DNA of 63,288 nucleotides from Candidatus Omnitrophota bacterium (GTDB lineage Bacteria > Omnitrophota > Gorgyraeia > JABMRN01 > RBG-13-46-9): the NCBI GenBank assembly GCA_013203315.1, contig JABMQJ010000013.1, positions 1 through 63,288 of the forward strand, read 5' to 3'. Position 1 is the first letter of the stretch, and every line of letters begins with the position of its first letter. The position numbers and the translations under genes are program-made. A model generated the notes under the pieces. That model was not told the origin of the DNA, did no database searches, and saw only the letters and a program-made list of their open reading frames with translations. This document shows positions 19,847 through 39,600 of this stretch, piece after piece.

Positions 19847-19849
19847 ATA

Positions 19850-19883
19850 TAGACAAAATAATATCATATATATATGCTATAGT
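19850..19883 (+). promoter_or_regulatory. Candidate antisense promoter(s) firing toward the G4 motif and the 3' end of the giant gene
   Basis: TAGACA(19850-55)-17 nt-TATGCT(19873-78); also TGcTATAGT at 19875-83. The region is AT-rich, so chance matches are possible. Confidence 0.3.
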
Positions 19884-19886
19884 CAA
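19858..19886 (-). promoter_or_regulatory. Sigma70-type promoter for gpsA-hom-thrC
   Basis: TTGACT-17 nt-TATTAT with TG extended -10 on the minus strand. Confidence 0.65.
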
Positions 19887-19910
19887 TACTAAGTGAAATA
19901 AAGAGAAGTT

Positions 19911-19927
19911 GGGTGGGTGGGATAGGG
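19911..19927 (+). other. Canonical G-quadruplex-forming motif GGGTGGGTGGGATAGGG
   Basis: Four G3 tracts with 1/1/3-nt loops in an otherwise AT-rich 62-nt intergenic gap. Confidence 0.8.
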
Positions 19928-19929
19928 CT

Positions 19930-22900
19930 TTATATCGACTTCATGACATCCTTATGGCATCTCTGCCAGTCGGCAATGGTCTCGAAGAGGGTCTTCATTC
20001 GCAGTGCGTGTTTAAAGAGGTATTTGAATAGATCTTCTAAGCTATTAACGCCTTCAACGCTATTCTCAGCTATTTTGCTTAAGTGGTCTTTTATGTCTCT
20101 GATTCCGGATTGATCACCTGTATTGCGGCAATCTGCGATAAGGCGCGCTAATGCCCCGCGGTTAGCCAGGTCCGGATATTCGTAATCAGTGCATGCATCG
20201 GGGATGACAGTAACATTTGCCTCGTCTTGATATTTGCCATGTGACTTTCCTGCAAGTTGCGGGCCATCTTCCATTTCTGCAGCAAACGAGACGATATGCA
20301 TTTTAGTAAGTTTTTCTATTAAGCCTTCCATTTCTTCTTTGTGAGCTTTTCCTTGCTTTGCCAATTCGCTTATCTTATGTTGTAACTTATGCAATGTTTC
20401 CATTGCCCTATCCACGGCTTTCCAGTAATTTTCCTCTGTCTTCGCGGGATCGTCCGGATCTACTTCATATGGTATTACCTGATCTGTGTCCATTTCCCTA
20501 TGATAAGAAGAATCTTCCAGGATTCCGAAACCGGCCTTGGCTAAATCTTTGTTTAGATCCTTAATTGTCTGCATGACTCTATTATGTTCACCCATTCCCT
20601 TTGCCCCCTTAGGCACCGGAATCGGTACTATAGCCTTAACTATATCTCCTGCCCGGACAACCTTACTGTATCCGTCGATCGCAGCGCCTTTACGTGCTTC
20701 GACAGTGTCTGGTTTTGGCACACTTGGAGAAACGTCTGTCGGTTCCAAAGCTGTAACTTGTGGCGGCTCTGCAGCAGCAGGTTCATCCCTATAATCATTC
20801 CTACGGAATACTGTCAACATTCCGTTGTTACTTTTGAAGTAATCGAAATATTTTCCTATCTCGTCTCCATTTTCAAAAACTGCTCCGGGAAGCCCAGCCA
20901 CGGCAAAACAAGCCCCTGGCTTCATGCTTCTAAGATGTCCTAACAATTCCATGGCAAAGGGAACCCCGTCTTCTAATTTGTTTTTCGGTGTATCGGGAAA
21001 TGTAAAGTAGAAATAAATAACGTCATACGACGATACATCAGTATTTAAAACATCGGCTATCTCAAAGGTCAATTGCTCACCTGGAATTTCCGCTCTTTCA
21101 GCTATCATTTCGAGGTTTCCTCTTATATAAAGTTCTGTTTTTTCTTTTATTTCAATAGTGTGAACTCTAGCACCGGCTGTTGTGAAGAACGCAGCGGATT
21201 CCCCCCTTCCTGTCCCGATTTCAAGTACAGTTTTGCTTTCATCGATTCCCAGCATAGCAATAAAAGCTCTGATCCATTCCGGGTTTGAAGCTGCATATAT
21301 TCCACCTTTGACGTCAAATAGCGGACTCGGTGGCCTCTCTATCGCCTCAAGCTGTGGTATCATTTCAAGAATAGCGTTCCATTTATTCAGATCCGGAGTA
21401 ACATTAGTACTACCTATACCAGGCATGAGAAAGAGTTTGGGGATAGCCTTACCCTGGCCCCTCGCCGGTTCCGGACTTGCGGCGCGGGACACGTCTTCAA
21501 GCCGTCTGAACCATTCAAGAAATCTACGCGGGTTCTGTTCTTTTGAGAACGTCTTAAAATAGAGCTTCTGTTCTTCTCTGTCTCGCGGAAGTTCCACAGG
21601 TTCCAACCCTGCCCTTCGCCTCAGAATATTCATAATGTCCCAGCCTGTCCGCGTATTGCCGTCATAGAAAGGATGGATAACTTGGTGAAAAAGCCAGAAA
21701 GCGATCGCCGCGTGGGTTGAGGGATTTCCTAAGTCAATATCTTCCCACGAACTCTTATCGCTGATCCATTCGCCCAGTGAAGCGAAGGAACGCGGGTCTA
21801 CGCAAGTATCGTGCGGCAGGTTAATCCACTTTAGAAAATCGACGACCTGCTGAGAAATTACTTTATGATTATCAAACTGCGCTACTATGTTTCCGTCAAA
21901 ATCTTCAACTCCAATTGACGTTGAACGATATGGCGCAATCGGTAGCGCCAGTTCAAACGATAATATCTCCCTGACGGTACCATGTTCTGCAGTCCAGTAT
22001 AAATAACTTAGCTGTCGAATATCGATTTCGGTAATCGCTCTACTTGACTCAGCGAGTTCCGAGACAAAATCTCTGATAAGTTGGTAAAGTCGTTGCCACG
22101 TCTCTTCTACTCCTCCGGGCTTATAACCCGTGTTAATAGCTTCGGCGGCAGAGGTTTTTGTTACCCGGGATCTAAGTAAATCAACTAATCTACTTTTCGC
22201 AGATGCTCTTCTTACAAAGAAGTATCCGTATCGTCCCTCATTTCCGGGCTCTGTTGCTTCTGTGAACATGGCACCTGCATATCCGTTATTCGCAAGCAAA
22301 TATTGTACTACAAAAAATGCAAGACGGTAATGACCGGACGCAGTATGCGGAATCGGTATACCTGTTTGTGTTGCGCTAGGCGGTTTATGTTGCTCTGTTA
22401 TTTTATCAAATCCTGGCAATCCGGGAGCAAGGTCTCTTTTTCCTACCTGGCTTACTTTTTCGTCGTGTTCTAGAAGTATCTGGCGCTTAGCAATGTATAT
22501 ATAAAGATCTGCTGCAGCTTCGAAAAGCTCTTCTTCGTTCTCATACTGCCTGTTTGCGACGTCTAATATATTCATATCGGCTGGGAGTCGTTCGTTCAAG
22601 GAACGCAATCTTTCAGCGCGTATCGCAGCTGTATATTCAGGATTTCCATTGTCTCCTCTATATAGTTCATATAAATTTAAAAGTTTTTCCCACGTAAGTG
22701 GTTCAAACGGCAGCCTCGCTGCTTCTCTCGGTACTAATACATCATCATTGAAATGTTTGACTGCTTCCATAAAATATTCATTCTCTATCCCTACACTTAC
22801 CAATAGCTTTAAGCTGTCTAAGGGGCCTCTTGTATCTTGTGCAGCTTCTGCTCCTTCCCGGCTCTTCGCCGGTTCCTTGCTCGCGGTTATGCCGATGCCG

Positions 22901-25900
22901 GATATAGGAGAAATGTATTCTACTTCGATTTCTTCGGCTTTCTGCCAATATTCCTTGGCCTTTTCTAGTTGCTTTTCCTTTTTTATACGCTTCATGCGGT
23001 GCGCTCTTGCCTTATCTGATCTAGGAGGAGCAAATGGTACAGTTTTATTAAGCACATTAGATTCTTCCTGACATATATCTACAACATTTCTCCAGGCCAT
23101 TTTATGGGCTTTTGTAAAAAATCTCATTGCCTGTAAGTAACTAAAGCCACTTGAATCGTCTCCATCGCGCCAGTCGGACATTTTTTGTATATCCCACCCA
23201 TGGCGACGTTGCGCCTCATCTAAAGCAATCCTATACTCCTGTTCTTCATGCATGATTTCTAGTTCGACTTCGATTCTATCTCGTGGCAATTCCTTCGTCC
23301 CGGCAGCAACCCATATAATACCTTCGTTCTTGTTTCTTGCGGTAAAGCCGACGTGACCGGTGAAGGGTTGACCATTCACTTCGCCCAGTTTATCTACGGG
23401 AAGTTCTACTACCCATAATCTCTTAGCTTTTTTGCCTTCGCCAATTGTTATGTAATTACCTTGCGCAAGCTTCTCAATCGGTAACCACTTATCTTTTGGC
23501 ACATCATCACCGGATTTTCCTTGATTCTGGTACCACTCCTGAAATGCTTTATACTCCCGCGGTGTAATTCCTTTCGCTTCGGCAATAGCCTCTAAATTAT
23601 CGCCCAGCGTTTCAACTATGCAATCGTTAAGATTTCCCGCTCTTCTATGCGGTAGTATCCCTGCCTCTGAAACGCCAATGCCTCCTTCGTCGCTTTCCGG
23701 TATGTGCGCAGTGGGGTCCGGGACACCATATCTGCGCTGTAAGTCTAACACAAAAAGACGGCCTCGTTTTGTCTCCCTTTTTGCTTCTTCAACCATCATA
23801 TCAGCGCAATCGCTATAAAGAATGTTGACAAGCCTCTTTTCTCCCCGTGAATGAAGTGTAAAATATCTATATTGTCCGGTTTCTGCAACAGCACCGATAG
23901 ATGCGCTTAGAAGACCTCTGGCAATGCCCTTACCTTCATATCCTTTTCTAGTTGCTATACCAACTAGATAATATGCTTCTTCGGCATTTATAGACGTTAT
24001 ATATTTTTTCTTATCAGCCTTTCCTGGTTCTGCGCATGTTACGCATCCGACAATTTTTCCGTTAGCTCGGGCGATAAAAGTTACGGCTCGAGGATTCTTC
24101 ATAGTATTTATCATTCGATCTATCCATGGTCTCCCAAATGCAAAAGAGCTCCACAAAAGCTCCCTTAATTCCTCTTCATTAGTTGCATCTTTGATAGTTT
24201 CCATGGAAATTTCTACACCGCTTACCAAGGGTATTGTAGAAATTGGGGACGGTTCTGGTTTTTCGTCCTTCGCCGGTTCCTCGGCCGCAGCTTGCTCATT
24301 CATCTTACGCGCCTCTGTAGGCAGCATGTCTTCATCTAAGGGTGGTGCTCTCTCGCCGATGGCTTTCATTTCGGCATCGTCCTCTGCCTCGGCTCGAGTC
24401 ATTCCCTCAATTGCATTGATTTCAGCGAGGAGAAGATCGCGCTGTTCTGGTGACATATTTAGTTCACGGGTTCGCCTGCGCATGTAATCCCAATTTATCC
24501 CATCTGTCTTTTGTCTTTCTGACAGGTTAAGTTCTACTACAAAACCGTGGCGGTTTGTAGAATCTAACGATTCCTGAATACCTGCAACAGGTAATTCACT
24601 ATCGCCAAGGTCATATGCCAGGTAACATTTTCTGCCGCTTATATTTCTTTCATATAAATTTTGCTGCAATACAACACTTCGGTCTATATCATTGAAAAAA
24701 ACTGTTAAGAGCAGCAAATCTTCAAAGCTGGTGTGCCTTTCTAGGATTTCCCCATTACTATATGTGTCGGTAATTTTGGTAAGCGTTGTCCCGTCTTGTA
24801 ATACCCTTATTTCTGCCAAATTATCGAAACCGACCTCTTGCGCTCTCTTAAATACATCTATTTCATTATTAAGGCCTCTTTTACTCAAAATTCCGCTATC
24901 TTCGGCATTATATGCAAAAAATAGTTGTCCATCCGGAGCTTCGTAAATTTTAGCCAATATCGAAAGTGTATAAACATCTCTTGAGAGAACCCACCCATCA
25001 GGATATTCTGACAAACAATCCAAATCAACAGGATCAAACACATGAAGTTTCCCATCCGGCCCTAACTTAACAGCAGAACTGATATCGTGTGTGATATAAT
25101 TTCCTGGATCCGTAATATCATATGCATCGTCGCCCTCTTTTGACGACGGGCCGAGGATTGTTTCTCCCTTTTCGTCGCGGTGGAATTTCTTTAAAAGTGC
25201 TATGAAACGCTTTATGGGGGAAACGATGGGCCCTCCGTTTGCAATATATGTGCCAAAAGTAACAAGGCCACCCATGGCAATAAGTAAAGGAAGATTGACC
25301 GGCCAGTCACCTAAAATAGACCCTTCAAGAAGAACCAGCAGAATCGTTCCGGAGGCTGCAATAGGCGCAAGATGCGTAACACCGAAACCCTTTATCCCTT
25401 GAGCTTTATACATAAAGTAATAACTCAGTGGGAAAAGGATTGCCGTACCGAAAATAAGCAAAGGATGTAAAATGAGAGAAAAGGCGCTCGCGCCTGAGAG
25501 GTATAATACAAAAGTAACCGCAGCAAAAACTGTCGCTGCCAGTTTGTATCCATATTTTACCGTAAGCAATTGCGCTTGCGGGTTAGATTCTTCGGATTCA
25601 CGCTGCCGGCTAAAGAATGTTTTGTGGATTACCTGCCTTATTGCAAGTGAAAGAGCCGAAATTACTACGGCTACGATACCGATAATCGCTAGTCCCGGCA
25701 TTCCTGTGTTTGCCCCATTACTTAAGAAACTTACAACCGTCAGCACCCCGATTAGGGTAAGAGCATTTCCGATAAGTTTCCTGGGCGTTATGGATTCCTT
25801 AAGAATAAATCTGCCTAAAAGTAGTCCAAATATCACAGCCGCTTGAGAAGCGAAAGCGGCTGTTCTCACATTGACTAATGATAGCCCGAAATGAAAAGAT

Positions 25901-28900
25901 GCGCCGCATATAATATGCGCAAAAACCGAACCCCAGAAGACGAGCCTCTTATCTTTTACATCAAGTTTTTCATAGAATTCACGTTCAGGGGAAATGACAT
26001 CGCGAATACTTTTTCTTTCGCCTTTTTTGTCTTTCACCAAATAAGAAATAAGATAGGCAACGGACATCCAGACGCTTGCAAAAAACGCCAGGCTAAACAT
26101 GTATTGAACCGCCACTATCTCCTGCATGCTTCCACTGGCAACTTCAGGCATATAGGAACTCAAGACAATTTTGCTCAATACTATGCCTAATGAGGCTACT
26201 ATTACACCTATGGCGGCTAAGAAGGAACCCTTTAATCGCCCGTCTTGACCTTGAGACGGTTCTTGTTTTTCATCCCTCGCCGGTTCCGCGACCGCTGCCA
26301 TCCTGGCGCATGCCCCGACAAGAGGATCGTTTAAAATCGAAACCGCTAGATCAGGTTTACCTGAAACAGGTCGGAGATCTTTATAACTCGGACTTGTCGG
26401 CGATAACGGTTTAAACTTGTTTTTATCTTCGATCAACCGGCCAAATTCGACTTCCAGATTGCCGTTCTGATTACGAAAGACACGAGCAGCAATAGGTGTA
26501 GTCATATAACGTGGAACTATACCCGTTTCTACTATAGCAATTGTATTACTTGCGCTGACTCTTTGCGAATCAAACTCGCGCACAAACATATGATCGGGAT
26601 ATTTAATAATAGGGACACCGGTCACATCCAGATCGTTTACAATAGAATTTTTATCAAAAGATAAGCCTTCAGGGCCTTTTGTTGATCCCTCCACAAGCAT
26701 AGGCCATCCTCTCTTTATGCCTAACTTTAAGTTATATTGTCTATGGGTAAGCCAGTTTAGGAGAAGTGCTATTGGGCCTGTTATGGGCGCTAATGTATAT
26801 ACGGCTTCCAGATATGGCATGTTTGCAAGAAGCGCAGGTATAATAGGTACGCCCAGTACGGGAATAAGCATCGCTACCCATATGCCTAGTATGCCGAGGG
26901 ATCTATATAGGTAGTCCTTCCATGTCTTATTTTCATGCAAGAATAGGAACCATGGCAGGAAGGTTTGGGGGATTTCTCTCCAGGCTGCGTACTTGGCTAT
27001 AAAGAGTTTCTCTTCTCTTGTCAGATCTTCCCATGTTGTATCTTCTGTCTTACCCAGCTTCTTTAGAGCTTTTTTGAAGGTAGCTTTGGTGGTGAGGGGG
27101 GCTGGTGGCTGGGTGTCGTCGGTTTCTCCTCCGGTATCCGCTAACATAGAATCTATCGGGCTTGTTGTAAGCTTACCATCTACCTCGTCATAATATCGTA
27201 TCAGAAGTGATTGGAGTAGTTCCCTTATCTCTCCGCTTATTTTATCCGATTTGAGGGCATTAAACATTGTATCTACTGCGTATTCCCGAACGTCTTGAGA
27301 GATTTGGTCCCTTGAAGCGAAATTAAACAACTCCCTCGCGCATAATGCTCTTGCATCTTCAAGCGTGTCCGGATAATAAGCCATGATATACGCCAAGCTG
27401 TCCACAGCCTCTTTTGTAGCCTCGCTACGCAACAAATGCAACAAGCTCCTAATGGTAGCACCATCTACATCTTGTGTTTTTACGCCTAATGCAGCACCTT
27501 TAGTAACACGCTTTGATAGCCTCACCTTATAATAGTTAAGTAGTCTCACCGCCAATATAGTGACGAGAGCAATTGAGCCCGTAAATGCAACCGGCCAACC
27601 AATGGAACGCAACTCCGGTGGCATAATGATGAGCACCATTGCTAACGCTGAAATTACTGTCCACAGGGTTTTTCTTTTTGGGTCAAGACTACCTTCTTCA
27701 TCTTCATTAAAATCTCTTATAATACTTAGGACGATTCCTGCCAGGCCGAGAGTAAGGAAATTGGTTGGGGAGAGTCCGCCAGATGTATCGTCTTTAGCAG
27801 TAAGACCTGTTTTTTCAGAATACAAATCTTCGCCGTAAACAATGGGAAGTTCTGAAATTTCCACTCCAGCATTTCTTTCAGCAGCGAGAAGCCCTATAAT
27901 TTCGTTTGTATAGACATCTGCCTTACGGCAATATAAACATTCTTGCGGATCAATAGGTAGTAAATCACTTTGTTTTCTCTGCAATAAAACGGGTACCGTG
28001 TCGGTTTCCACATCTGTACCAGTAAATAATTCAAACTGTGGCTCTCTATTTGCAGGTTGTGATTTTGTTATACATGCATATACAGTGTCTGACCCAAAAG
28101 AATAAGCAACGCTTAGATTACCGGCAGCCACGGGGCAATTATGCATCTGTGGTAAAGATTCACGCGGTATTACATCACTCGCATTCAGCATTTCTTTTTG
28201 CATTATATATTGTGAAAATTTATCATCGAAAAATATAGAGACGCCGTTGATCTTTCCATTTTTTCTCTGATAATATGTTTTTTCCAGCACTTCCAAGATC
28301 GCGGTGTTATACTCGCCCTTGCCTTGGATAGCTGTAAAATTGACAAAGTCTATTCCTAAATCTTTTGCCAATAGAATAAAATCATCAACCTCTTGATAAT
28401 TCTGCTCACCTACAACAAAGCCCATTCCTATTCGTAACCGTGTTTCTCCTGCTAATGCACGCTCATTTCGTAGCTCTACGGATCTACGAATGGTTTCTAC
28501 AATTCTCCCATATCTATGTTCCATCTCTCTTCTTCCGGCACCTTCCAATTTTAACGCCCCAAATGTTTCCGGAGTTGCCGCATCAATTGAGAAGAAAAGT
28601 CTGTTTACTTTCAATACACACATTTCAATATCAGATTCACTCAAGAGTTCGCCGTTTGTATAAATCGAAAGATAAATGTCGGATCCTCTATTGCGTATTT
28701 CATCTACATAAAGTTGCAGGCTTTCATAGAATGGTTCGCCGCTTCCGCTAAGATTTATCTTTTTCACTCCCATTCCTATGAATTGGTCTATTACTTCAAT
28801 CCTTCTCTCCTCTCCGGCAATACTGATTGGAGGTCCTCCTTCAATAATTATCAACTCACCATCAGCAGTTAGTCTCGTAGCGTTGAAACAATGTGCACAT

Positions 28901-31900
28901 CTCAGAAGGCAAAATGAGCTAGGATGGATTTCCAAAACCTGAGGAACAATTTTTCCATCTAATATAGCCTGTATAGTTGACTGATCCTGACCCATGAATT
29001 CCCGAAACATGCTTAGTGCCCTGGGCCTTGCAGATTCGTATGATAAGAGATCTTGGAATTTTGGGGTATTTCTTAAAATAGCGTATATTTCTTTGATATC
29101 GCCAATCGTTAAATCTACACCATATACTTTACTAATATTTGATATTAATAATTGCGTGGGTTGTAGTGGATTTATAAGTAATTCTCTCAGAACATAAATA
29201 CAACTATGTGCAGTAGCTTCAGGTACATTTGTCTGCAATTCGTCTGTGATTAACCTAAGCGTCCGCACGTCGTGAGGGTTGTTAATTAAACTTGATCTAA
29301 GTTTTGATGCAGGATCTTTACGGGCGCTTCGTGTGATAATATAGTAAACTGCACCTACAGCCACTGCAACCAGCGCTATTGCCGCAGCTATCGTAGCGCC
29401 ATAGCTAAATAAGCCAACGATAGGTTCTCCTGCTGCTTGTGCGACTTGCCCAAGAGGTGCCTTTTCTAAACCAGCCGCAAATCCCGGCGTTGCGAGGGCA
29501 CCAAGAAGTATGATCGACAGAAGAATCATTGTGGATTTGTTGAAAAGTGTTTTTAAGGTTTTACCGAATTTGCTAATAGCTGCGGAGAGGATGGTTATGA
29601 GACGAGACCTTTGTTTACGTGAATCTGGGGCGATGAGTTCCGGAAATTCTTGCTCAGGGGCAAAGTCCGCGCTAAGTTCCGTAATCTTTTCTATAGTTCT
29701 TGCCACCCGTTCATATGGTATTCCTTCAGGGGTGGGGTACCCATCAATCTCTTCCGGAAGCCTTTCAATGCCCATCGCTTCTATGCTTGTCTTTAACCCT
29801 TCTAAATCAAAAGCAACAACATAGACTTTCCTGGTTCCGTCGGTTTCTTGCCGAACTACAACACCGATATTCTCGTAGATTGGCGCGTATATAAGCGGAA
29901 TATCTATTACCGGGTTTTGACGTTTTGCGTTCTCAAGCAGTCCTACCAAATTCTCGTCTCCCTTGTTACGTGCAATGCCTACAGCCTCATCTAGAGGAAT
30001 AGCTCTTTCTACGACATCCATAGGTTGATTCAAAACATTTCTCATTCTTGCAACCAACTTGTCATTATTAGCTAATGCGGCCATCTCTGCTTCGCTTTCT
30101 CCTATTATCATACAATTAAGCATGTGGCGTAACGGATGCATATAATAGACTCTGATAACGTAGTTTTTTACTAAAAATGTGACCTTCCCTCCAGCAGATT
30201 CCAAATCTTGAATAGCCGCACCAAATATATCTCGAACCATCTTCTTGGTGTCACTGGGCAGAATATGTGTACCAAAAGTTTTTTGGATATCGAGATATCT
30301 TTCAAGATCGTGAATAAAAACACTGAGATTTTTACGTGTTTTTATAGCGTCGCGCAAATAGTTATTTAAAAGTTCTCTTTCTGGTAATGATGCATTATCT
30401 ATGAGACTTTTTGCTTTTATCTCATTTTGTTTGCTAGATCTACGATGCCACCATCTCGCCATTACCCATATACCGCCGGCGGCGGCAAGAATTATACCTA
30501 TTATCTTGGCTATGTCTAACCCGGACCAAGCCCCTAGACCTGCCCCAGCATGCGGAAGTGCTTCACCTGCTGCAGCCGCAAATCCTGGTGCTGCGAGGAA
30601 GGTTAGGGTTATACCGATTGCTGCCAGGAAGAGGAGGGGAGTTGAAATATTCATAGACAAGGTACGACCGTCTTTAGCCTCTGCTGGTTTAGCTTTTTTG
30701 TCTGATTCAGTTTTGTCAGACTCTATAACTTCTTTCATAGCATCCATGTAGGCCTTTAAATGCAGATCGATAGGAAAATCCTTATGAACCCACCAGGGTA
30801 GGGCGCCGCTGTAGCCACGCCTTCTAGTATTCCTTAAGACATGTGAAAAAAGCGGTCTATTATACATATCAACCGGCTGATATTCTCCAACGATCACATC
30901 AACTTCAGGAGAGATATTAAGCCATTCCCTGCCTGCTTTATCAGAATCAAACCCCCGGAGTTCCTTGACGTCATCCCCTGTGTAATGAGGTTTTGTGTAA
31001 TAATGGAAGTTGGCCAAGTCTCCCGGCTCCATCAAATGTATCCAATATTTTAATGTCTCCCTGCTAACTGCACTGAAACTAACAGGTAAATTCGTCTGTT
31101 CCCGGATACTCGTGGCAACATCAGCTACAAAATCCTGCCTGAGCCACAAAGGCATGTGCCGGTATTCTCCTGTAACCGGATCAGTGAAGCCTACAAGATA
31201 TCTTTCGGCTCCTCCAGCCGCATTCTCATCAACGTCTGGTTCGTTCATAGGTTCGATAGCCCTTATTACATCCGAATATTGCTTCAAGATATTAAGTTCC
31301 GGTTCAATACTCATTAGAAAATTAGCCCGCTTTTTGCGATCCAGAAAAAGCTCGGGATGAGTTCTAGCCAGCAAATAATCAAATAATACGGGAACTCCTC
31401 GGATCTTGTATTTTCTTAAAAGTTCGCAATAAGCCCTGATATTTTTCTCGGCTACCTTATGATCTATAACGACTGTACCATCTTCTAAAACCTTAACTGA
31501 CTCAAGATTTGCAAATGTAAATCGCCTGTCCATAAATTTAAGGTCTTTCAGTCCTTTCATATCAGGAAACTTCCTTGCCAGTGCATTCCTCATAGCGGCA
31601 AGGGCCCTAAACTCCTTTTCGACAAGTACGCCTGCAGTCCCTGCAAATCCGTCCCTTTCATCCGTAAATACCTTTGAATATGTCTCGGGACTGGTATATC
31701 CTCCAGTGCCTAAATACCTTAAGAAATCGATAGTACTCGGTTTTTTTACTTGGACAGGCTTCTTACGTAGAAGTTCGGTTTTAATCGGCTCAGGTTCGGA
31801 TTCTACCGGTGGATTTTTTATCACCGGTTCTTTTCCTGTAACTTCTAATTTGTGTATTTTAAGCTTGCCTCTAAAGCGGGTTCCTTTTTCTACATCAGAG

Positions 31901-34900
31901 CAAAAGCCTACCTCAATACGCACCCAACTTGCATGTTCACCCGTAAACCCCTTACCGGTCCAGGCCTTGCCGTCAGGAGACGCTGACGGATGAAATTCCA
32001 TGGTTATTTTTTGTCCTTTTTTAACGTTTATATTTTTAGGTAAATCCATCTGCCCGCCATTAACAGCGCTCCAGACCCCAATCTTAAATTCCATTAATGG
32101 TACATCTTCGAACCCTTTATCCGGTATTACTTCAAAAGTAACCTTGAAACCACCATCTCTCATGTCAAAGCGATGTTTTACTAAATGACTGCCATGTTCC
32201 GTAAGTCCATCTATCGATGTATCTTTAGAAGGAAAGGCGGCATATTCCACGTCAATACCAAAACCTCCGTGCCCATCTCCGTCGTCCTCTGTTTTTGCCA
32301 AATCAAGCTCGGCCGCTACTTTACCGTCTTCCCTATCCCAGCCTATTTCTCTTATACCTTTACCATATGAATTGTAACCCGCCATCCAGCTAACAGACTT
32401 ATGCAGATCATATACTGTTATATTAAGCTTTGGATCTACTGATTTCCTATCGGGTTCCGCTATCATCCTAAAACGATCATCTTTACCTGCTAAAATCCGA
32501 GGATGTTCTTCTGCGCTTATTTTAGTTCCTCTTTCTACACTTTCCCACACTGCGCCTGTCTTACGATCCTTAATACGCGTATAAGAAGCATCGTCCGTAG
32601 TTTTAGTCTTATCTGCCGCGATGGATCTTTCTTTGGGTAAAAATATTGAGGCAATACCCGCACCAGCGATACGAAGAAATCCTCTTCTGCCTATTGATCT
32701 CCACCAAGGTTCCTTGCTGGAGGCCGGGGACGGTTCACCTTTTGTCGACGCCCACACATCATCATCTTTTCGCAGGCTTTCTGCGCTAATGTCGGATGCT
32801 GAAGTTAATTTAGCAATAGCATTAGAAATCGCCTTTTTTTGTGCTTTTCTGTCGCGGGCATAACTCGCTAAGGTAAGCTCCTTATTTAATTCACGTATCG
32901 CTGACTGCAATTGGGCAGGATTTGCTGTATTAAAGAGTTCATTTATTCGGCTGCTTCCTGCATCGTTACAGCCGACATCTTCAAACAACCTGCAAAGCAA
33001 TATAATCGGGATATCTAGTCCTGGACGCAATAGTAATTTTGCCTTTAGCTCTCGCGCATACTCCCATTTCTTATAGTTCGCAAGTGCGATTATGCGGGAC
33101 AAATCGCAAGTTTCCTTCCCCAGTATCCATCCCAATATAGTGCATTCGAGAGTGCTAAACGCAAATTCAAGTGACAAAAGACCTGTAGAAATTAAAATTA
33201 CGTACATATAAATTGCATGATTTCCTGACAATATCTCTTTCGCGGCGGGTATTCCTAAATACAATAACAAACCTGAAACAACTAGTGTTGCCAACGGTCC
33301 GCCGGATCCTATTAGAATACCTTTTAAACCTCTATCTTTTATAGGCGGGTCAAACTCCTTATTTCTATATGTATCGAGTATTCGCTTTATTGTAAGTCTA
33401 TTTCCACCAAAGAAACTGGATATAGGGTGTAGCAGGATGTACACAAATATATGACCTGATTCGTGAACAAAAATATCAAGTGCTAAAATAGCTGTAAGAA
33501 TACCTGCCAAACTTTTTCTTATAAAACGGGTAGAATTCCATGCAATCATAGGCGAAACAGGTGTCATTTGTATAGAATCCGGGGACGCCTCCTTCGCCAT
33601 AGCGGCTATGGGGTAAGGTTCTTTGACTTCGGCTGGTGTTGCAACAAGATCCGCGAGTATAATGTCAGCGCCTTCAGCATCTCTTTGACCGGTAGGTTGT
33701 TTATATATGCCTGCTGTTAGTGTGAGGCCTTCGGTTTCTTCGGTATATGTGTAATATGGGTTTTCAGGTATATCACTTGGAGATATGACTATATCCCAGC
33801 CTATCAGGGTTCCTATGGTAAATGGCTTATTGCTAAATACTGCCGCCAATATTTGGGCCTTTAGTGAAACTTGATTCCTATCTTTTATATCAACAACACC
33901 CATTTGAGAGAATAAGCTACTAATGGCAAGAGCAGAGTGCTGGGTGGTATACGATATGGCTTTATTTAGAAACTTGTCTAATTTAGTTTCTTTTCCCGCT
34001 AAGAGACTAAAATACGGAGATTCGTAGCCTTTTTTAGTCTTGAAGTTTGGTAGTATGCCAATGTAGGAGATGTTGTTTCGCTTGAAGAGTTTTGCAAGAT
34101 TGCCTGAGTGAAAACCACCGGTTATGAGAATGGCCGTATCTTTTAGTTTTATATTCTTTAAAAAGGCTTCGTCACGCTTAAATGTGCACTCGTAACATTC
34201 AGCCATGTTTTTGACATGGCGGTCGAGCTCTTGCATGTTCTCATCGGGCCTTGCGGTTATCCTGTAAAGAGGCGCCTCTTTTTCTATGAACGCGGTGAAA
34301 TTCTTTATGCGGAATGAGTCTTTGTTTTCTTTGTAGTACCGGTAGTCATCGTTTGTTATGGCCAGATTAAACATGCCCCGTATTAAAGTGAAGTTTTTAT
34401 GTAAAGCGCTAAGCTCTCTTTGCTTATCGTTTGTTAGGAGGGCTGCTTTGACCACGTCTTTTAAGCTATCTATTTCTTTCATTATTTTGGATTTATCGAT
34501 AGCCTTGTATTTTGAGGAGCAGGAAATGTATTTTTGGAACTGGGGGAACCGGTTTAGGTTTATGCCTACTGATTTTGCCTTCTCGAAAAGATAGGCATGG
34601 AAGTCGTATTGTGATATCTTCTTAGTTTTGAACTGGACTGTCTTTAAAATAATCTCTTCAAGCGCCCGTTTGGAAAGTATCTTCTGGAATTCGTCTATCA
34701 GTTTCTTTCGTTCCCTCGTTACCTCTTTGAAATCCATACCATCTTCCTGTCCGAAAGACTCTTCCAGGAGGTATATGTTGGGGAAGGCTTCGGTATCTAT
34801 ATTCTCTTCTTTCGCAGTCTTTATGAGGTAGGAAAGATAGTCTTTGAAGCCAAAAGTGTTTTCCCGGTAGTTTACGTAGTTTTCGTCAAATTCGAGAAGT

Positions 34901-35589
34901 TCTTTTGAGTATATGTTGCGGCGCAGGTTATTCAGAACATGCTCAAGAGACTTCAGGTATTTATCGATTGCGTCTTTGTGCTTTAGGGAGTTTTTCGTTA
35001 GCTTAAGGTTTTCGAGATAAAGCTTCGTATTCTCTATGCCCCAGAGGCTTGCTTTATCGGGGTTATTTATGGCGAAGTACTCACCGCCGTTTACGATACC
35101 CTCTTTTACGAAGTAATCGGCTACTTTCTCTCTTATGCGCCCATCAGCGATTCCGGTAAATACCGAAAGGTCATACGCGCCTTTCCCACCCTCAAGATTG
35201 ATCGAGCTTATGCCGTACTCTTCACTGAGATGCTCGATTATGTCGTTTATCTTGTGCTGGGCAAAATAGTTACAGTGCGCATCCTGGATGTGGATTACTG
35301 TTTTCCCCGAATTGGCGTTATCGATGCTTCGTATGTGGGCAAGCTCTTCTGGCAGGTCAAATGACTCGACATCTAATGCGTTAATAGAACCCGGGCCGGC
35401 AGGCCTATTAGAACTGGTACTCGACAGTTCTAACGGTGTTCTGCTGGCCCAGGCTTTTTCCAAAAGGAATTCTCCGCTAATATTAGTAAACAAAAAGGAC
35501 CAAAGAGTAATAAAAGCTATTACCCTAATTGGTCCTTTAAACCTGCAAATATAATTATGATCTTGATTATTAAATCGAGTACGTAACAT
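19930..35589 (-). CDS. Giant 5219-aa multi-module membrane protein (ChaN-like, M50-like, CBM-like plus GH-A hydrolase, radical SAM, EamA, kinase-like, GNAT, Fic x2, SAM-methyltransferase)
   Basis: Uninterrupted 15.66 kb ORF with GGGAG RBS; recognisable motifs HESGH, RRGFLR, NEP/GEY, CLLRCAHC, GYEGKGIA, HPFYDGNTR, VLEIGTGRG. Confidence 0.93.
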   Translation of the reverse strand: MLRTRFNNQDHNYICRFKGPIRVIAFITLWSFLFTNISGEFLLEKAWASRTPLELSSTSSNRPAGPGSINALDVESFDLPEELAHIRSIDNANSGKTVIHIQDAHCNYFAQHKINDIIEHLSEEYGISSINLEGGKGAYDLSVFTGIADGRIREKVADYFVKEGIVNGGEYFAINNPDKASLWGIENTKLYLENLKLTKNSLKHKDAIDKYLKSLEHVLNNLRRNIYSKELLEFDENYVNYRENTFGFKDYLSYLIKTAKEENIDTEAFPNIYLLEESFGQEDGMDFKEVTRERKKLIDEFQKILSKRALEEIILKTVQFKTKKISQYDFHAYLFEKAKSVGINLNRFPQFQKYISCSSKYKAIDKSKIMKEIDSLKDVVKAALLTNDKQRELSALHKNFTLIRGMFNLAITNDDYRYYKENKDSFRIKNFTAFIEKEAPLYRITARPDENMQELDRHVKNMAECYECTFKRDEAFLKNIKLKDTAILITGGFHSGNLAKLFKRNNISYIGILPNFKTKKGYESPYFSLLAGKETKLDKFLNKAISYTTQHSALAISSLFSQMGVVDIKDRNQVSLKAQILAAVFSNKPFTIGTLIGWDIVISPSDIPENPYYTYTEETEGLTLTAGIYKQPTGQRDAEGADIILADLVATPAEVKEPYPIAAMAKEASPDSIQMTPVSPMIAWNSTRFIRKSLAGILTAILALDIFVHESGHIFVYILLHPISSFFGGNRLTIKRILDTYRNKEFDPPIKDRGLKGILIGSGGPLATLVVSGLLLYLGIPAAKEILSGNHAIYMYVILISTGLLSLEFAFSTLECTILGWILGKETCDLSRIIALANYKKWEYARELKAKLLLRPGLDIPIILLCRLFEDVGCNDAGSSRINELFNTANPAQLQSAIRELNKELTLASYARDRKAQKKAISNAIAKLTSASDISAESLRKDDDVWASTKGEPSPASSKEPWWRSIGRRGFLRIAGAGIASIFLPKERSIAADKTKTTDDASYTRIKDRKTGAVWESVERGTKISAEEHPRILAGKDDRFRMIAEPDRKSVDPKLNITVYDLHKSVSWMAGYNSYGKGIREIGWDREDGKVAAELDLAKTEDDGDGHGGFGIDVEYAAFPSKDTSIDGLTEHGSHLVKHRFDMRDGGFKVTFEVIPDKGFEDVPLMEFKIGVWSAVNGGQMDLPKNINVKKGQKITMEFHPSASPDGKAWTGKGFTGEHASWVRIEVGFCSDVEKGTRFRGKLKIHKLEVTGKEPVIKNPPVESEPEPIKTELLRKKPVQVKKPSTIDFLRYLGTGGYTSPETYSKVFTDERDGFAGTAGVLVEKEFRALAAMRNALARKFPDMKGLKDLKFMDRRFTFANLESVKVLEDGTVVIDHKVAEKNIRAYCELLRKYKIRGVPVLFDYLLARTHPELFLDRKKRANFLMSIEPELNILKQYSDVIRAIEPMNEPDVDENAAGGAERYLVGFTDPVTGEYRHMPLWLRQDFVADVATSIREQTNLPVSFSAVSRETLKYWIHLMEPGDLANFHYYTKPHYTGDDVKELRGFDSDKAGREWLNISPEVDVIVGEYQPVDMYNRPLFSHVLRNTRRRGYSGALPWWVHKDFPIDLHLKAYMDAMKEVIESDKTESDKKAKPAEAKDGRTLSMNISTPLLFLAAIGITLTFLAAPGFAAAAGEALPHAGAGLGAWSGLDIAKIIGIILAAAGGIWVMARWWHRRSSKQNEIKAKSLIDNASLPERELLNNYLRDAIKTRKNLSVFIHDLERYLDIQKTFGTHILPSDTKKMVRDIFGAAIQDLESAGGKVTFLVKNYVIRVYYMHPLRHMLNCMIIGESEAEMAALANNDKLVARMRNVLNQPMDVVERAIPLDEAVGIARNKGDENLVGLLENAKRQNPVIDIPLIYAPIYENIGVVVRQETDGTRKVYVVAFDLEGLKTSIEAMGIERLPEEIDGYPTPEGIPYERVARTIEKITELSADFAPEQEFPELIAPDSRKQRSRLITILSAAISKFGKTLKTLFNKSTMILLSIILLGALATPGFAAGLEKAPLGQVAQAAGEPIVGLFSYGATIAAAIALVAVAVGAVYYIITRSARKDPASKLRSSLINNPHDVRTLRLITDELQTNVPEATAHSCIYVLRELLINPLQPTQLLISNISKVYGVDLTIGDIKEIYAILRNTPKFQDLLSYESARPRALSMFREFMGQDQSTIQAILDGKIVPQVLEIHPSSFCLLRCAHCFNATRLTADGELIIIEGGPPISIAGEERRIEVIDQFIGMGVKKINLSGSGEPFYESLQLYVDEIRNRGSDIYLSIYTNGELLSESDIEMCVLKVNRLFFSIDAATPETFGALKLEGAGRREMEHRYGRIVETIRRSVELRNERALAGETRLRIGMGFVVGEQNYQEVDDFILLAKDLGIDFVNFTAIQGKGEYNTAILEVLEKTYYQRKNGKINGVSIFFDDKFSQYIMQKEMLNASDVIPRESLPQMHNCPVAAGNLSVAYSFGSDTVYACITKSQPANREPQFELFTGTDVETDTVPVLLQRKQSDLLPIDPQECLYCRKADVYTNEIIGLLAAERNAGVEISELPIVYGEDLYSEKTGLTAKDDTSGGLSPTNFLTLGLAGIVLSIIRDFNEDEEGSLDPKRKTLWTVISALAMVLIIMPPELRSIGWPVAFTGSIALVTILAVRLLNYYKVRLSKRVTKGAALGVKTQDVDGATIRSLLHLLRSEATKEAVDSLAYIMAYYPDTLEDARALCARELFNFASRDQISQDVREYAVDTMFNALKSDKISGEIRELLQSLLIRYYDEVDGKLTTSPIDSMLADTGGETDDTQPPAPLTTKATFKKALKKLGKTEDTTWEDLTREEKLFIAKYAAWREIPQTFLPWFLFLHENKTWKDYLYRSLGILGIWVAMLIPVLGVPIIPALLANMPYLEAVYTLAPITGPIALLLNWLTHRQYNLKLGIKRGWPMLVEGSTKGPEGLSFDKNSIVNDLDVTGVPIIKYPDHMFVREFDSQRVSASNTIAIVETGIVPRYMTTPIAARVFRNQNGNLEVEFGRLIEDKNKFKPLSPTSPSYKDLRPVSGKPDLAVSILNDPLVGACARMAAVAEPARDEKQEPSQGQDGRLKGSFLAAIGVIVASLGIVLSKIVLSSYMPEVASGSMQEIVAVQYMFSLAFFASVWMSVAYLISYLVKDKKGERKSIRDVISPEREFYEKLDVKDKRLVFWGSVFAHIICGASFHFGLSLVNVRTAAFASQAAVIFGLLLGRFILKESITPRKLIGNALTLIGVLTVVSFLSNGANTGMPGLAIIGIVAVVISALSLAIRQVIHKTFFSRQRESEESNPQAQLLTVKYGYKLAATVFAAVTFVLYLSGASAFSLILHPLLIFGTAILFPLSYYFMYKAQGIKGFGVTHLAPIAASGTILLVLLEGSILGDWPVNLPLLIAMGGLVTFGTYIANGGPIVSPIKRFIALLKKFHRDEKGETILGPSSKEGDDAYDITDPGNYITHDISSAVKLGPDGKLHVFDPVDLDCLSEYPDGWVLSRDVYTLSILAKIYEAPDGQLFFAYNAEDSGILSKRGLNNEIDVFKRAQEVGFDNLAEIRVLQDGTTLTKITDTYSNGEILERHTSFEDLLLLTVFFNDIDRSVVLQQNLYERNISGRKCYLAYDLGDSELPVAGIQESLDSTNRHGFVVELNLSERQKTDGINWDYMRRRTRELNMSPEQRDLLLAEINAIEGMTRAEAEDDAEMKAIGERAPPLDEDMLPTEARKMNEQAAAEEPAKDEKPEPSPISTIPLVSGVEISMETIKDATNEEELRELLWSSFAFGRPWIDRMINTMKNPRAVTFIARANGKIVGCVTCAEPGKADKKKYITSINAEEAYYLVGIATRKGYEGKGIARGLLSASIGAVAETGQYRYFTLHSRGEKRLVNILYSDCADMMVEEAKRETKRGRLFVLDLQRRYGVPDPTAHIPESDEGGIGVSEAGILPHRRAGNLNDCIVETLGDNLEAIAEAKGITPREYKAFQEWYQNQGKSGDDVPKDKWLPIEKLAQGNYITIGEGKKAKRLWVVELPVDKLGEVNGQPFTGHVGFTARNKNEGIIWVAAGTKELPRDRIEVELEIMHEEQEYRIALDEAQRRHGWDIQKMSDWRDGDDSSGFSYLQAMRFFTKAHKMAWRNVVDICQEESNVLNKTVPFAPPRSDKARAHRMKRIKKEKQLEKAKEYWQKAEEIEVEYISPISGIGITASKEPAKSREGAEAAQDTRGPLDSLKLLVSVGIENEYFMEAVKHFNDDVLVPREAARLPFEPLTWEKLLNLYELYRGDNGNPEYTAAIRAERLRSLNERLPADMNILDVANRQYENEEELFEAAADLYIYIAKRQILLEHDEKVSQVGKRDLAPGLPGFDKITEQHKPPSATQTGIPIPHTASGHYRLAFFVVQYLLANNGYAGAMFTEATEPGNEGRYGYFFVRRASAKSRLVDLLRSRVTKTSAAEAINTGYKPGGVEETWQRLYQLIRDFVSELAESSRAITEIDIRQLSYLYWTAEHGTVREILSFELALPIAPYRSTSIGVEDFDGNIVAQFDNHKVISQQVVDFLKWINLPHDTCVDPRSFASLGEWISDKSSWEDIDLGNPSTHAAIAFWLFHQVIHPFYDGNTRTGWDIMNILRRRAGLEPVELPRDREEQKLYFKTFSKEQNPRRFLEWFRRLEDVSRAASPEPARGQGKAIPKLFLMPGIGSTNVTPDLNKWNAILEMIPQLEAIERPPSPLFDVKGGIYAASNPEWIRAFIAMLGIDESKTVLEIGTGRGESAAFFTTAGARVHTIEIKEKTELYIRGNLEMIAERAEIPGEQLTFEIADVLNTDVSSYDVIYFYFTFPDTPKNKLEDGVPFAMELLGHLRSMKPGACFAVAGLPGAVFENGDEIGKYFDYFKSNNGMLTVFRRNDYRDEPAAAEPPQVTALEPTDVSPSVPKPDTVEARKGAAIDGYSKVVRAGDIVKAIVPIPVPKGAKGMGEHNRVMQTIKDLNKDLAKAGFGILEDSSYHREMDTDQVIPYEVDPDDPAKTEENYWKAVDRAMETLHKLQHKISELAKQGKAHKEEMEGLIEKLTKMHIVSFAAEMEDGPQLAGKSHGKYQDEANVTVIPDACTDYEYPDLANRGALARLIADCRNTGDQSGIRDIKDHLSKIAENSVEGVNSLEDLFKYLFKHALRMKTLFETIADWQRCHKDVMKSI

Positions 35590-35766
35590 TATTTAATAAT
35601 CTCCCAACTTTTTGAAAACTTTAAATAAGCGGGTAAAAAAATACACCCTGCCGAGTACATATATTCAGAGTATTATTTATTTTGCCCTATATAATATAAT
35701 AATACTATTATATGCAAAATAATTCACAAAATAGGCTAAATTTTGTATATTCCTAACATTGGGGAC

Positions 35767-35797
35767 AAAAAAAGAGGAATATAAAACTTTATATTCC
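35767..35797 (-). terminator. Rho-independent terminator upstream of the giant gene
   Basis: ggaatataaa/tttatattcc stem (35776-35797) followed on the minus strand by TC and a T7 tract. Confidence 0.7.
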
Positions 35798-35834
35798 CCC
35801 CAAAAGCCGCTTTTCTTGTGCTGGCTTTATATAT

Positions 35835-35954
35835 TTATTTGACTATGAATCTCTTTTCCAGAAGGCTAAGTTTCTTATCGACGAAGTGAATCTTCACCAG
35901 GGCAATAAGGAACAGGGCCATGTGCATTATGCTCTTGTAATGTTCTATATGCAT
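35835..35954 (-). CDS. Unannotated 39-aa small protein MHIEHYKSIMHMALFLIALVKIHFVDKKLSLLEKRFIVK
   Basis: GAGGAG 8 nt before ATG, overlaps the stop of the upstream gene, one hydrophobic stretch, terminator downstream. Confidence 0.55.
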   Translation of the reverse strand: MHIEHYKSIMHMALFLIALVKIHFVDKKLSLLEKRFIVK

Positions 35955-36322
35955 TTTGCTGACTCCTCATTTTTTATGTTTATTTTTATCGTGTGCACGA
36001 ACACGATGTTATATATAGATACATCTGCTACTATGTAGAAAGTTCCCCTCATCTTGCATATCAGTTTATCCTCTTTCTTTGCAGATGAGCATTTCCTCAA
36101 AATATGGAAGAACTTCTTGTCTTTTGCGCCATTCTTCTTCCTTATATGTATCCACTCCGCAAGTTCCTTTTTGGATTTTACTTTATGGATCTCGCGGACA
36201 AAATACATGGACCTTTTTTTCGTTGTGGAAATTATACCGTTTCGGTGGACAATTTCCTCAAGAGAGATGTCCCTTTTCTTAGAGGGAATAGCAGTTAAGT
36301 TCTTAAATATTAACTCTCTCAT
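35945..36322 (-). CDS. Basic hypothetical protein (125 aa)
   Basis: ORF with AAAGGA RBS and its own consensus promoter; no family recognised. Confidence 0.7.
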   Translation of the reverse strand: MRELIFKNLTAIPSKKRDISLEEIVHRNGIISTTKKRSMYFVREIHKVKSKKELAEWIHIRKKNGAKDKKFFHILRKCSSAKKEDKLICKMRGTFYIVADVSIYNIVFVHTIKINIKNEESAKCI

Positions 36323-36431
36323 CTTGTCCGTCCTTTCAGGACTTATTAAAGCTTTTTAATTAGTGCAATTAAAAAATGCCCCTTAATTCTACGCAGACTA
36401 CAGGGCTCGTTTAACGTCTCATTCAACCATT

Positions 36432-36460
36432 AGTATACCTGACTACTTTAATGGTGTCAA
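36432..36460 (-). promoter_or_regulatory. Near-consensus sigma70 promoter
   Basis: TTGACA-17 nt-TATACT; overlapped by inverted repeat CCATTA-N16-TAATGG (36427-36454). Confidence 0.8.
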
Positions 36461-36503
36461 GAGCAGGCATCTAGCTTTTTTATAACCTAACATTAGGCCC
36501 TTT

Positions 36504-37115
36504 TTAAATCAACCTTTTTTCTTCCCCTCTTAAAAGGCGCTTGATATTCGCTTTATGTTTATAGACGCTCGCCAGGCAAAGGATAACACAAAATATAACA
36601 AAATAAAAGGACCTGTAAAAAATAACTGCAAATATCGGTAATGAGAGAGACGCGATTATGGATGCGATCGAGACTATCCGGAATACGGCAAAAACTATGA
36701 TCCAAATCGCAAGGCACGCGAGAAGTGTACCGGGCGCTAAGGCTATCAAAACACCTCCCGTAGTAGCTATGCCCTTCCCACCCTTGAACCTTAAAAACAC
36801 GCTGAAAACGTGTCCGGCAATCGCGCACATGCCTAATAAAATTTTGTAGAACTCGAGACCGAGAATTACCCCTGTCCAGTTGCTTAAAAAAACCTCAGAG
36901 AGTAGCGATACTGCCACAACCCCTTTGGCTACATCAATAAGAAGCACGATGATGCCGGGAATTTTTCCTACCGTACGAAAGACATTCGTGGCTCCGACAT
37001 TGCCGCTTCCGTGTTCGCGTATGTCGATTTTTTTTAAGGCCTTAGCGAATATATAGCTCGTAGGTATTGAGCCGATAAGATAAGCAAGCGTTAAAGATAT
37101 TATTAGGCTTATCAT
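36504..37115 (-). CDS. plsY: Glycerol-3-phosphate acyltransferase PlsY
   Basis: YLIGSIP, DIREHGSGNVGATN, DVAKG, GHVFSVFLRFKGGKGIAT, HKANIKRL. Confidence 0.96.
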   Translation of the reverse strand: MISLIISLTLAYLIGSIPTSYIFAKALKKIDIREHGSGNVGATNVFRTVGKIPGIIVLLIDVAKGVVAVSLLSEVFLSNWTGVILGLEFYKILLGMCAIAGHVFSVFLRFKGGKGIATTGGVLIALAPGTLLACLAIWIIVFAVFRIVSIASIIASLSLPIFAVIFYRSFYFVIFCVILCLASVYKHKANIKRLLRGEEKRLI

Positions 37116-39012: not shown

Positions 39013-39600
39013 TTATTTAACAAGCCTTATCCGCGGAATCGGCCAGTGTATAAGGAAGACCTTACCCGCTATGTTTTTTGACGGGACAAACCCCCAATAA
39101 CGCGAATCTACCGAATTTAAGCTATTATCCCCCAGCGCAAAGTAGTGGCCCTCGGGCACTTTTATAGGCTTTTCCGCGCGGCCGTATTCGCCCCTATTAT
39201 AATAGGTTATGCTTTTTATGCTGAGCGGCTCTTCGAGCGGCTTTCCGTTTATCCATATGTGCTGCCCCTTGATCTCGACGGTATCGCCGGGTTCTCCGAC
39301 CAACCTCTTTACCAGGAATTTATTCGGCTCTACGGGTGAACGGAATACTATAATATCCCCGCGCTCGGGTTTCCTTACTTTCGGAAGCCTTATGTTAGTA
39401 AGCGGAATTTTCGCCCCGTAGATAAATTTCGTCACGAATATCCTGTCACCCGGTTTAAAAGTCGGAACCATGGATGAAGTTGGTATCTTAAAAGGTTGCG
39501 CGATAAAAGTCCTGATTATAAGTGCGATTATGAGGGCGTATAAAACCGGCTTCACCCACTCGTCACGCCAGTATTGCCATTTTTTGTATTTTGACGTCAT
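39013..39600 (-). CDS. lepB: Signal peptidase I
   Basis: IPTSSMVPT (Ser), LVKRLVG (Lys), GDNSLNSVDSRYWG. Confidence 0.95.
   Translation of the reverse strand: MTSKYKKWQYWRDEWVKPVLYALIIALIIRTFIAQPFKIPTSSMVPTFKPGDRIFVTKFIYGAKIPLTNIRLPKVRKPERGDIIVFRSPVEPNKFLVKRLVGEPGDTVEIKGQHIWINGKPLEEPLSIKSITYYNRGEYGRAEKPIKVPEGHYFALGDNSLNSVDSRYWGFVPSKNIAGKVFLIHWPIPRIRLVK

Follow-up and report, generated by a model that had tools for sequence, protein, structure and literature searches.

The contig JABMQJ010000013.1 of a Candidatus Omnitrophota bacterium (assembly GCA_013203315.1), all 63,288 nucleotides of which are referred to here as the window, contains a giant open reading frame (ORF) on the minus strand at 19930-35589 (15.7 kb), listed and translated as a multi-module membrane protein of 5,219 amino acids (aa). 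The protein has about 25 hydrophobic segments, along with Pfam matches to Radical_SAM, EamA, GNAT, Fic and a PCMT-type methyltransferase. Within this single ORF, on the same strand, lie two units of similar build, unit 1 at 30403-30708 (aa 1628-1729) and unit 2 at 29278-29583 (aa 2003-2104), which an initial annotation had described as duplicated signal-peptide-like hairpins and as candidate cut sites for signal peptidase I (SPase I, encoded by lepB). Here we describe the anatomy, neighbouring domains and relatives of the two units, and weigh a reading as uncleaved membrane tethers against a reading as internal processing sites.

Hydropathy and counts of lysine plus arginine (K/R) outlined the same succession of parts in both units. 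In unit 1, an N-terminal flank (ESDKKAKPAEAKDGRTLS) leads into a first helix (MNISTPLLFLAAIGITLTFLAA), a loop (PGFAAAAGEALPHAGAGLGAWSGL), a second helix (DIAKIIGIILAAAGGIWVMA) and a C-terminal flank (RWWHRRSSKQNEIKAKSL), with hydropathy peaks at aa 1652-1670 and 1693-1711. The corresponding parts of unit 2 are AAISKFGKTLKTLFNKST, MILLSIILLGALAT, PGFAAGLEKAPLGQVAQAAGEPIVGL, FSYGATIAAAIALVAVAVGAVYYIIT and RSARKDPASKLRSSLINN, with peaks at aa 2021-2039 and 2067-2085. In both, an eight-residue motif closes the first hydrophobic segment and is followed by the loop, the second hydrophobic segment and a K/R cluster. The motif is LAAPGFAA in unit 1 (aa 1665-1672, 30574-30597, minus strand; codons CTC GCA GCA CCA GGA TTT GCG GCT) and LATPGFAA in unit 2 (aa 2032-2039, 29473-29496, minus strand; codons CTC GCA ACG CCG GGA TTT GCG GCT). 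K/R counts for N-flank, loop and C-flank are 5, 0 and 6 in unit 1 and 4, 1 and 5 in unit 2, and the loops, of 24 and 26 residues with one and two acidic residues (D/E), respectively, carry no net positive charge. The layout previously read from the letters, a basic stretch, an h-region, LA(A/T)PGFAA, a spacer, a transmembrane (TM) segment and a second basic stretch, is therefore borne out in both units by hydropathy and charge.

The first half of each unit also has the parts of a signal peptide. Pro at -4, Gly at -3, Ala at -1 and Ala at +1 (hence no Pro at +1) surround a candidate -3/-1 site in both units, G-F-A1671↓A1672 and G-F-A2038↓A2039, where the arrow marks the predicted cut; these lie at residues 1671 and 2038 of the ORF and not at its N-terminus. 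The basic n-region has 5 K/R and 4 D/E in the 18 residues before unit 1, and 4 K/R and no D/E before unit 2. The h-core of unit 2, MILLSIILLGALA(T), has 13-14 residues and falls within the short range of h-regions (about 7-15), whereas that of unit 1, LLFLAAIGITLTFLAA, has 16 residues, or 19 with STP, and is borderline against the same range. On the Hessa insertion scale, a position-independent sum, indicative only, came to between about 0 and +1 for the helices of the units.

The initial annotation had rested its claim of duplication on two stretches of DNA, 30573-30598 and 29472-29497, and their identity at 23 of 26 nucleotides (nt) held on re-examination. These are the sole two matches in the window at up to three mismatches (0 expected in 100 shuffles), and a repeat finder independently recovered the pair, 1101 nt apart and in frame. 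When the DNA is aligned on the motif, identity outside the 26 nt drops to 28%, the random level; with the motif masked, 55 of 1000 block shuffles equalled or exceeded the protein similarity of the two units (z = 2.0). Since the flanking DNA is random and the masked units are no more alike than shuffled ones, the repeat is a sharply bounded 26-nt island in two like-built units and not a duplicated 100-residue unit; "duplicated" stands for the eight-residue, 26-nt motif and falls for the unit as a whole, which shows no similarity beyond that of composition. Peptides matching at 7 of 8 residues are not in themselves unusual in the giant protein, which has three such pairs, and 31% of shuffles also contain at least one. 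What is unusual is that the same codon is used at six of the seven shared motif residues (P about 0.0026 under the gene's own codon usage) and that the motif occupies the same structural position in both units. The simplest reading of the island is a short gene-conversion tract, although it could instead reflect a constraint at the nucleotide level. The other two pairs, ERAIPLDE/ERAPPLDE (aa 1861 and 3746) and ELPRDRIE/ELPRDREE (aa 4100 and 4666), may have arisen by chance, as the shuffles suggest.

The orientation of the units depends on the domains around them. Between the two units lies a soluble segment of ~270 residues without a Pfam family (domain X; aa ~1725-1990, 29620-30417, minus strand). 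The matches of an exhaustive HMMER search, the only productive homology search in this work, were all giant proteins of Omnitrophota type or homologues of domain X. It placed domain X in three further giant proteins and also in several standalone proteins of ~290 aa, the latter with neither signal peptide nor TM segment. An AlphaFold model using these homologues as the alignment reached a predicted local distance difference test score (pLDDT) of 75-98, and its top Foldseek matches in the PDB were weak (E 0.02-0.4) and all of kinase fold (aminoglycoside phosphotransferases, RIO kinase, methylthioribose kinase), so that domain X is probably a protein-kinase-like fold and would lie in the cytoplasm. 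In the model of the hairpins together with domain X, helix 1 of both units had a pLDDT below 50 and the packing of the hairpins could not be read. Directly downstream of unit 2 comes a radical SAM core (aa 2223-2375, 28465-28923, minus strand; Pfam PF04055, 7.5e-10 to 2.5e-11) with the CxxxCxxC motif CLLRCAHC, likewise a cytoplasmic-type domain. Because the kinase-like domain X and the radical SAM core are both cytoplasmic types, unit 2 should cross the membrane an even number of times, with its loop, and the motif at the start of that loop, facing outward, an assignment that is well supported. The C-flank of unit 1 would likewise be cytoplasmic, since it runs into domain X.

The N-terminal side of unit 1 is less clear. 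The initial annotation had put the A-x-A site on the outer face in both units; this fits unit 2, with cytoplasmic-type domains on both sides, but in unit 1 it meets a conflicting signal upstream. A twin-arginine-like segment, IGRRGFLRIAGAGIASIFL (aa 966-984, 32638-32694, minus strand), can be read from the sequence within SIGRRGFLRIAGAGIASIFLPKER (aa 964-987), after four predicted spans and before a domain at aa ~1000-1640 (30670-32592, minus strand). At +7.7 on the Hessa scale, a rough figure, the segment is too weakly hydrophobic for a Sec-type span. The domain that follows had been called a glycoside hydrolase (GH) unit, an identity that we could not confirm. It has no Pfam match and no PDB sequence match, and a word-index homology search with aa 1000-1645 found no homologue, although this type of search also missed the query's own protein; a single-sequence AlphaFold model (pLDDT 35) was unusable. 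The motifs NEP (1449), FHYY (1528) and VGEY (1567) do occur in the order of clan GH-A, with no profile or fold match alongside, which is a hint of a GH-A barrel.

A relative of unit 1 shows which parts of the hairpin are kept. The exhaustive search found a single one, 59% identical, at aa 5047-5111 of P0007, a 6,307-residue partial protein from another Omnitrophota metagenome-assembled genome (MAG; NCBI MFH1593741.1). LAAPG, the loop GEALP..GAG.G.WSGLD and helix 2 are retained in this relative, with PGLVTT in place of the PGFAAA of unit 1. The hairpin, its Pro-Gly and its loop are thus conserved but F-A-A is not, being replaced by L-V-T, and this pattern implies that selection acts on the hairpin as a structure. 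For unit 2, no relative outside the giant protein was detected by the exhaustive search or by a search with an alignment of the three hairpins. Word-index searches with aa 1640-2100 and with the three-hairpin alignment gave no match and also missed the query's own protein, which we take as a limit of the tool. A scan of a genome collection with aa 1640-2100 gave no match, nor did scans of metagenomes with the hairpin alignment and with a degenerate DNA pattern for the GEALP..GAG.G.WSGLD loop.

The comparison with P0007 also places the hairpins at points of rearrangement. There the hairpin runs straight into a module homologous to aa 2988-3110 of the giant protein, and the shared modules are joined to different hairpins in the two proteins. 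Specifically, aa 2988-3110 (26260-26628) resemble P0007 aa 5121-5240, and aa 2852-2965 (26695-27036) resemble P0007 aa 5520-5635, such that the order of the two modules is reversed, the second coming later in P0007 and earlier in the giant protein. As the P0007 hairpin is joined to a different module and the module order has changed, the hairpins stand at joints of module rearrangement, which suggests that cassettes are shuffled between giant genes. Paired hydrophobic segments serve as punctuation in P0007 and in two other giant proteins (P0003 and P0013) as well, and two more basic-flanked hairpins in the present protein, at aa 2640-2685 and 2897-2944, have no small-x-small (A-x-A) site.

The most economical explanation of these observations is that the units are in-out-in hairpin tethers, placed where modules meet in a giant membrane protein of a known class, a reading to which we assign a probability of about one half. 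It starts from what is observed, namely the sequence anatomy, the charge asymmetry, the types of the flanking domains and the homologue, and the hydropathy and K/R counts fit two spans per unit with an outward loop. From a basic cytoplasmic flank, helix 1 would cross outward and end at the Pro-Gly break of PGFAA; an outward loop of 22-26 residues, rich in Gly, Ala and Pro and without net positive charge, would follow, and helix 2 would return to the cytoplasm and end in the Arg/Lys cluster. Insertion would probably use Sec/YidC, as for other hairpins. The hairpins would then pin soluble modules of cytoplasmic type to the inner membrane, first domain X and the radical SAM core and further on the GNAT, Fic and methyltransferase modules, and would mark the boundaries of cassettes, as the joining of the same hairpin to a different module in P0007 indicates. 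The hairpins would mostly stay uncleaved, and G-F-A↓A would be the small residues with which a helix ordinarily ends at the outer interface.

Proteins of this kind have been described from the same phylum. Giant Omnitrophota proteins carry numerous TM helices (10.1101/2023.11.21.568195), and of 916 long proteins catalogued more recently, 46% are TM-only; cytoplasmic modules of that class, such as methyltransferase, GNAT and radical SAM, are placed on the inner face (10.64898/2026.06.07.730766). The present protein resembles these membrane-threaded giants (10.1101/2023.11.21.568195; 10.64898/2026.06.07.730766) in its Omnitrophota host, an ORF of more than 5,000 aa, TM helices between enzyme modules, and radical SAM, GNAT and methyltransferase modules on the cytoplasmic side, although it is small for the class. 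It is not of the Archaeovorin subtype, because SecA_DEAD, C39 and S8 domains are absent from its Pfam matches. The PGFAA hairpin cassette has no earlier description among Omnitrophota giants.

Several points weigh against uncleaved tethers. A core of 13-14 residues, as in unit 2, is what cleaved signals typically have, whereas a stable span is usually longer, and the loops match the length of the loop in M13 procoat, which is cleaved. The sole element shared by the units is an eight-residue motif resembling the c-region of a signal peptide, codons included, and a pure helix-end role does not obviously require a motif to be shared down to its codons. The topology of the units is itself a prediction, in a group of proteins whose topology predictions are described as unreliable (10.1101/2023.11.21.568195). 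Finally, the twin-arginine-like segment, if used, would put the aa 1000-1640 domain outside and give unit 1 an odd number of spans; either this segment is unused or only one of the two helices of unit 1 crosses the membrane. In the dual Sec-Tat proteins (actinobacterial Rieske Sco2149 and relatives), an internal twin-arginine motif likewise follows an even number of spans, and a weakly hydrophobic helix and then a globular domain come after it. In the giant protein, however, the segment lies upstream of the units, the domain after it has no recognised cofactor, and two hydrophobic segments follow in place of the end of the protein, such that the span count does not close.

The strongest rival builds on the idea of the initial annotation: helix 1 of each unit would be an internal, procoat-like signal peptide, and LepB would cut after G-F-A on the outer face, splitting the giant product. 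The upstream part would then be C-terminally anchored, domain X would be anchored at both ends, and everything from the radical SAM core onward would keep an N-out anchor. We regard such cleavage as plausible but doubtful. The n/h/c layout fits in both units, as do the residues at -4, -3, -1 and +1, and the prerequisites for SPase I are present in an in-to-out helix 1, a basic n-flank, an h-core that is short in unit 2 and borderline in unit 1, and loops without net positive charge; the flanking domains of unit 2 give good support to an outward loop there. The motif is moreover the only strongly conserved element between the units, and the literature itself raises the question of cleavage for giant Omnitrophota proteins. 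Cleaved sites similar to PGFA↓A are found in TEM-1 (...LPVFA↓H) and M13 procoat (...SFA↓AEG).

Internal cutting by SPase I has precedents among membrane proteins. SpsB cleaves the polytopic LtaS of Staphylococcus aureus (PMC12260438), engineered SPase I sites after the internal TM domains TMD3 or TMD5 release reporters (PMC5449189), and M13 procoat, of the same overall architecture as the units, is cleaved by leader peptidase on the outer face once its hairpin has been inserted (PMC5766580). LtaS and the engineered TMD3/TMD5 Sec-Tat reporters share with the units a polytopic context and a cut after an in-to-out helix, cleavage of the units being a candidate only; the LtaS cut frees a large extracellular domain, whereas the outward segment of a unit is a short loop that re-enters the membrane. 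The likeness to M13/f1 procoat is closer and comprises a basic n-region, a hydrophobic leader, a small-x-small site (SFA↓A against GFA↓A), a loop of roughly 20 residues that has no net positive charge, a second helix and, at the C-terminus, a basic tail. Procoat, however, is a free 73-residue protein with an N-terminal leader, while the units lie within a chain that extends for hundreds to thousands of residues on either side. No homology in sequence between procoat and the units came to light, although no search was aimed at coat proteins.

Other points weigh against cleavage. A simple scan with the -3/-1 rule found seven compliant sites in a single 542-aa transporter-like protein of the window and two in PlsY; the rule has low specificity, and compliant sites are frequent in the ordinary polytopic proteins of the window. 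In the P0007 homologue, PGLVTT places Val/Thr at -1, which is poor for SPase I. From the identical codons, recent conversion over a short tract seems likelier than long-term selection on the peptide, and the h-region of unit 1, at 16-19 residues, is on the long side. The gene for the peptidase is close by, as had been stated: lepB at 39013-39600 (minus strand, 195 aa) is confirmed by TIGR02227 (3.7e-51) and by SSMVPT, which contains the S-M-x-P motif. It adjoins lepA (TIGR01393, 1.8e-284), and a paired lepA-lepB operon is established in Escherichia coli; the nearness of lepB to the units is housekeeping synteny and no evidence for cleavage. The broader proposal, that the PGFA↓A hairpins are both procoat-like processing cassettes, through which a housekeeping SPase I would turn the product into a membrane polyprotein of anchored enzymes, and recombination joints between giant genes, is more tentative still.

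An unlikely alternative that concerns origin, and is compatible with either tethers or cleavage, is that the units are fusion scars, remnants of the N-terminal signals or anchors of once separate genes, with Met1646 and Met2021 as fossil starts and the segments kept as spans. A Met does stand directly before each h-region, modules are shuffled between giant proteins at hairpins, and domain X exists elsewhere as a standalone gene. Nevertheless, because the standalone homologues have no signal peptide or TM segment, the hairpin was not inherited from a standalone domain X gene, and the P0007 hairpin has no Met at the equivalent place.

We consider it improbable that the product is cut within the membrane by its own HExxH-containing module (aa ~693-811) or by another protease, with the Pro-Gly break as determinant and SPase I uninvolved. 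Three further spans do occur at aa 693-811, followed by a K/R-rich cytoplasmic stretch, and HESGH (aa 709-713, 33451-33465) is buried in a hydrophobic segment of this three-span block, reminiscent of intramembrane metalloproteases of the site-2-protease type. Other giant proteins have been proposed to process themselves with built-in peptidases (10.1101/2023.11.21.568195). The HExxH region, however, has no Pfam match even at E <= 1, and nothing ties the module to the helices of the units.

Independent translation from Met1646 or Met2021, which would yield shorter secreted or anchored proteins from the giant mRNA, is very improbable. An in-frame ATG does lie just before each h-region, but so do 100 internal ATG codons occur across the giant ORF, and the P0007 hairpin has no Met. 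The initial annotation had noted that no Shine-Dalgarno sequence precedes the nearby Met codons, and indeed no AGGAGG-type core of at least 4 nt was found upstream of Met1646 or Met2021. This is weak evidence against internal starts, because only 21 of the 43 ORF starts in the window have such a sequence, so that half of the genuine starts do without one.

The motif literally contains PGF, with a helix and a basic cluster after 22-26 residues, yet a PGF-CTERM or exosortase-type signal in internal use is scarcely credible and was rejected: neither unit was matched at E <= 0.1 by PGF-CTERM, PEP-CTERM or a related NCBIfam model, both lie inside the protein and not at its C-terminus, and their PGF comes after a helix and is separated by 22-26 residues from the next one, whereas in PGF-CTERM (TIGR04126), an archaeal system, PGF abuts the helix. 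A type IV prepilin signal (class III) was rejected on the hydrophobic stretch before G-F and on a Glu at +7 (unit 1) or +6 (unit 2) and not at +5, and a lipoprotein signal on the absence of Cys.

The giant gene itself is not an assembly accident, because two Logan contigs from separate runs are 100% identical to it over 13-15 kb and the JGI and NCBI copies of the protein fall into one 90% cluster; in all, identical recovery extends to at least three independent assemblies. The Logan and JGI copies are either 100% identical or one late frameshift apart, and so show no population variation at the motifs. The frameshift, in one JGI copy (P0017/P0016), lies near aa ~4790, close to the methyltransferase module, and gives products of 4,813 aa and 392 aa; with the other assemblies intact, it reflects either strain variation or a mistake in assembly. 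At its N-terminus the protein has a signal peptide or anchor (aa 1-48, 35446-35589, minus strand) ending ...EKAWA↓SRTP, as read from the sequence and by comparison with P0013, whose homologous N-terminal domain is preceded by a classical signal peptide ending ...TQCALA↓H. The AWA↓S end would be the canonical LepB-type site of the giant protein. In the Fic module, the motif reads HPFYDGNTR (aa 4639-4647, 21649-21675), with Thr in place of the Gly of the canonical HxFx(D/E)GNGR.

The surroundings of the gene are otherwise housekeeping, with thrC, hom and gpsA on one side and plsY, der, pgsA, lepB and lepA on the other. From der to past lepA, the DNA is 90.5% identical to contig JADHYL010000018 of a Black Sea "Candidatus Omnitrophota" MAG, which was found by scanning a genome collection with Der and which ends inside der, short of the giant gene. 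Between gpsA and plsY-der, the giant gene is accompanied by two small ORFs without annotation, one at 35945-36322 (125 aa) and one of 39 aa that is called in the Logan contigs; the stretch 19930-37115 has the look of an insert among housekeeping genes of lipid synthesis. The plus-strand ORFs at 29510-29824 and 30401-30751 are antisense to the giant ORF and were taken as spurious, and no Rfam family was found on either strand of 19000-37000.

Whether giant Omnitrophota proteins work as single chains or are cut has been explicitly left as an open question (10.1101/2023.11.21.568195), and the cutters proposed so far are built-in C39/S8 peptidases only. A short portable cassette with a predicted cut position offers a concrete and cheap test of this question, as LepB, if it cuts, is expected to leave one defined neo-N-terminal peptide, AAAGEALPHAGAGLGAWSGLDIAK. 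Uncut hairpins would be an ordinary result, two more in a protein class known to be full of them. If cleavage were true, the 15.7-kb ORF would instead yield a set of individually membrane-anchored enzymes, a bacterial membrane polyprotein.

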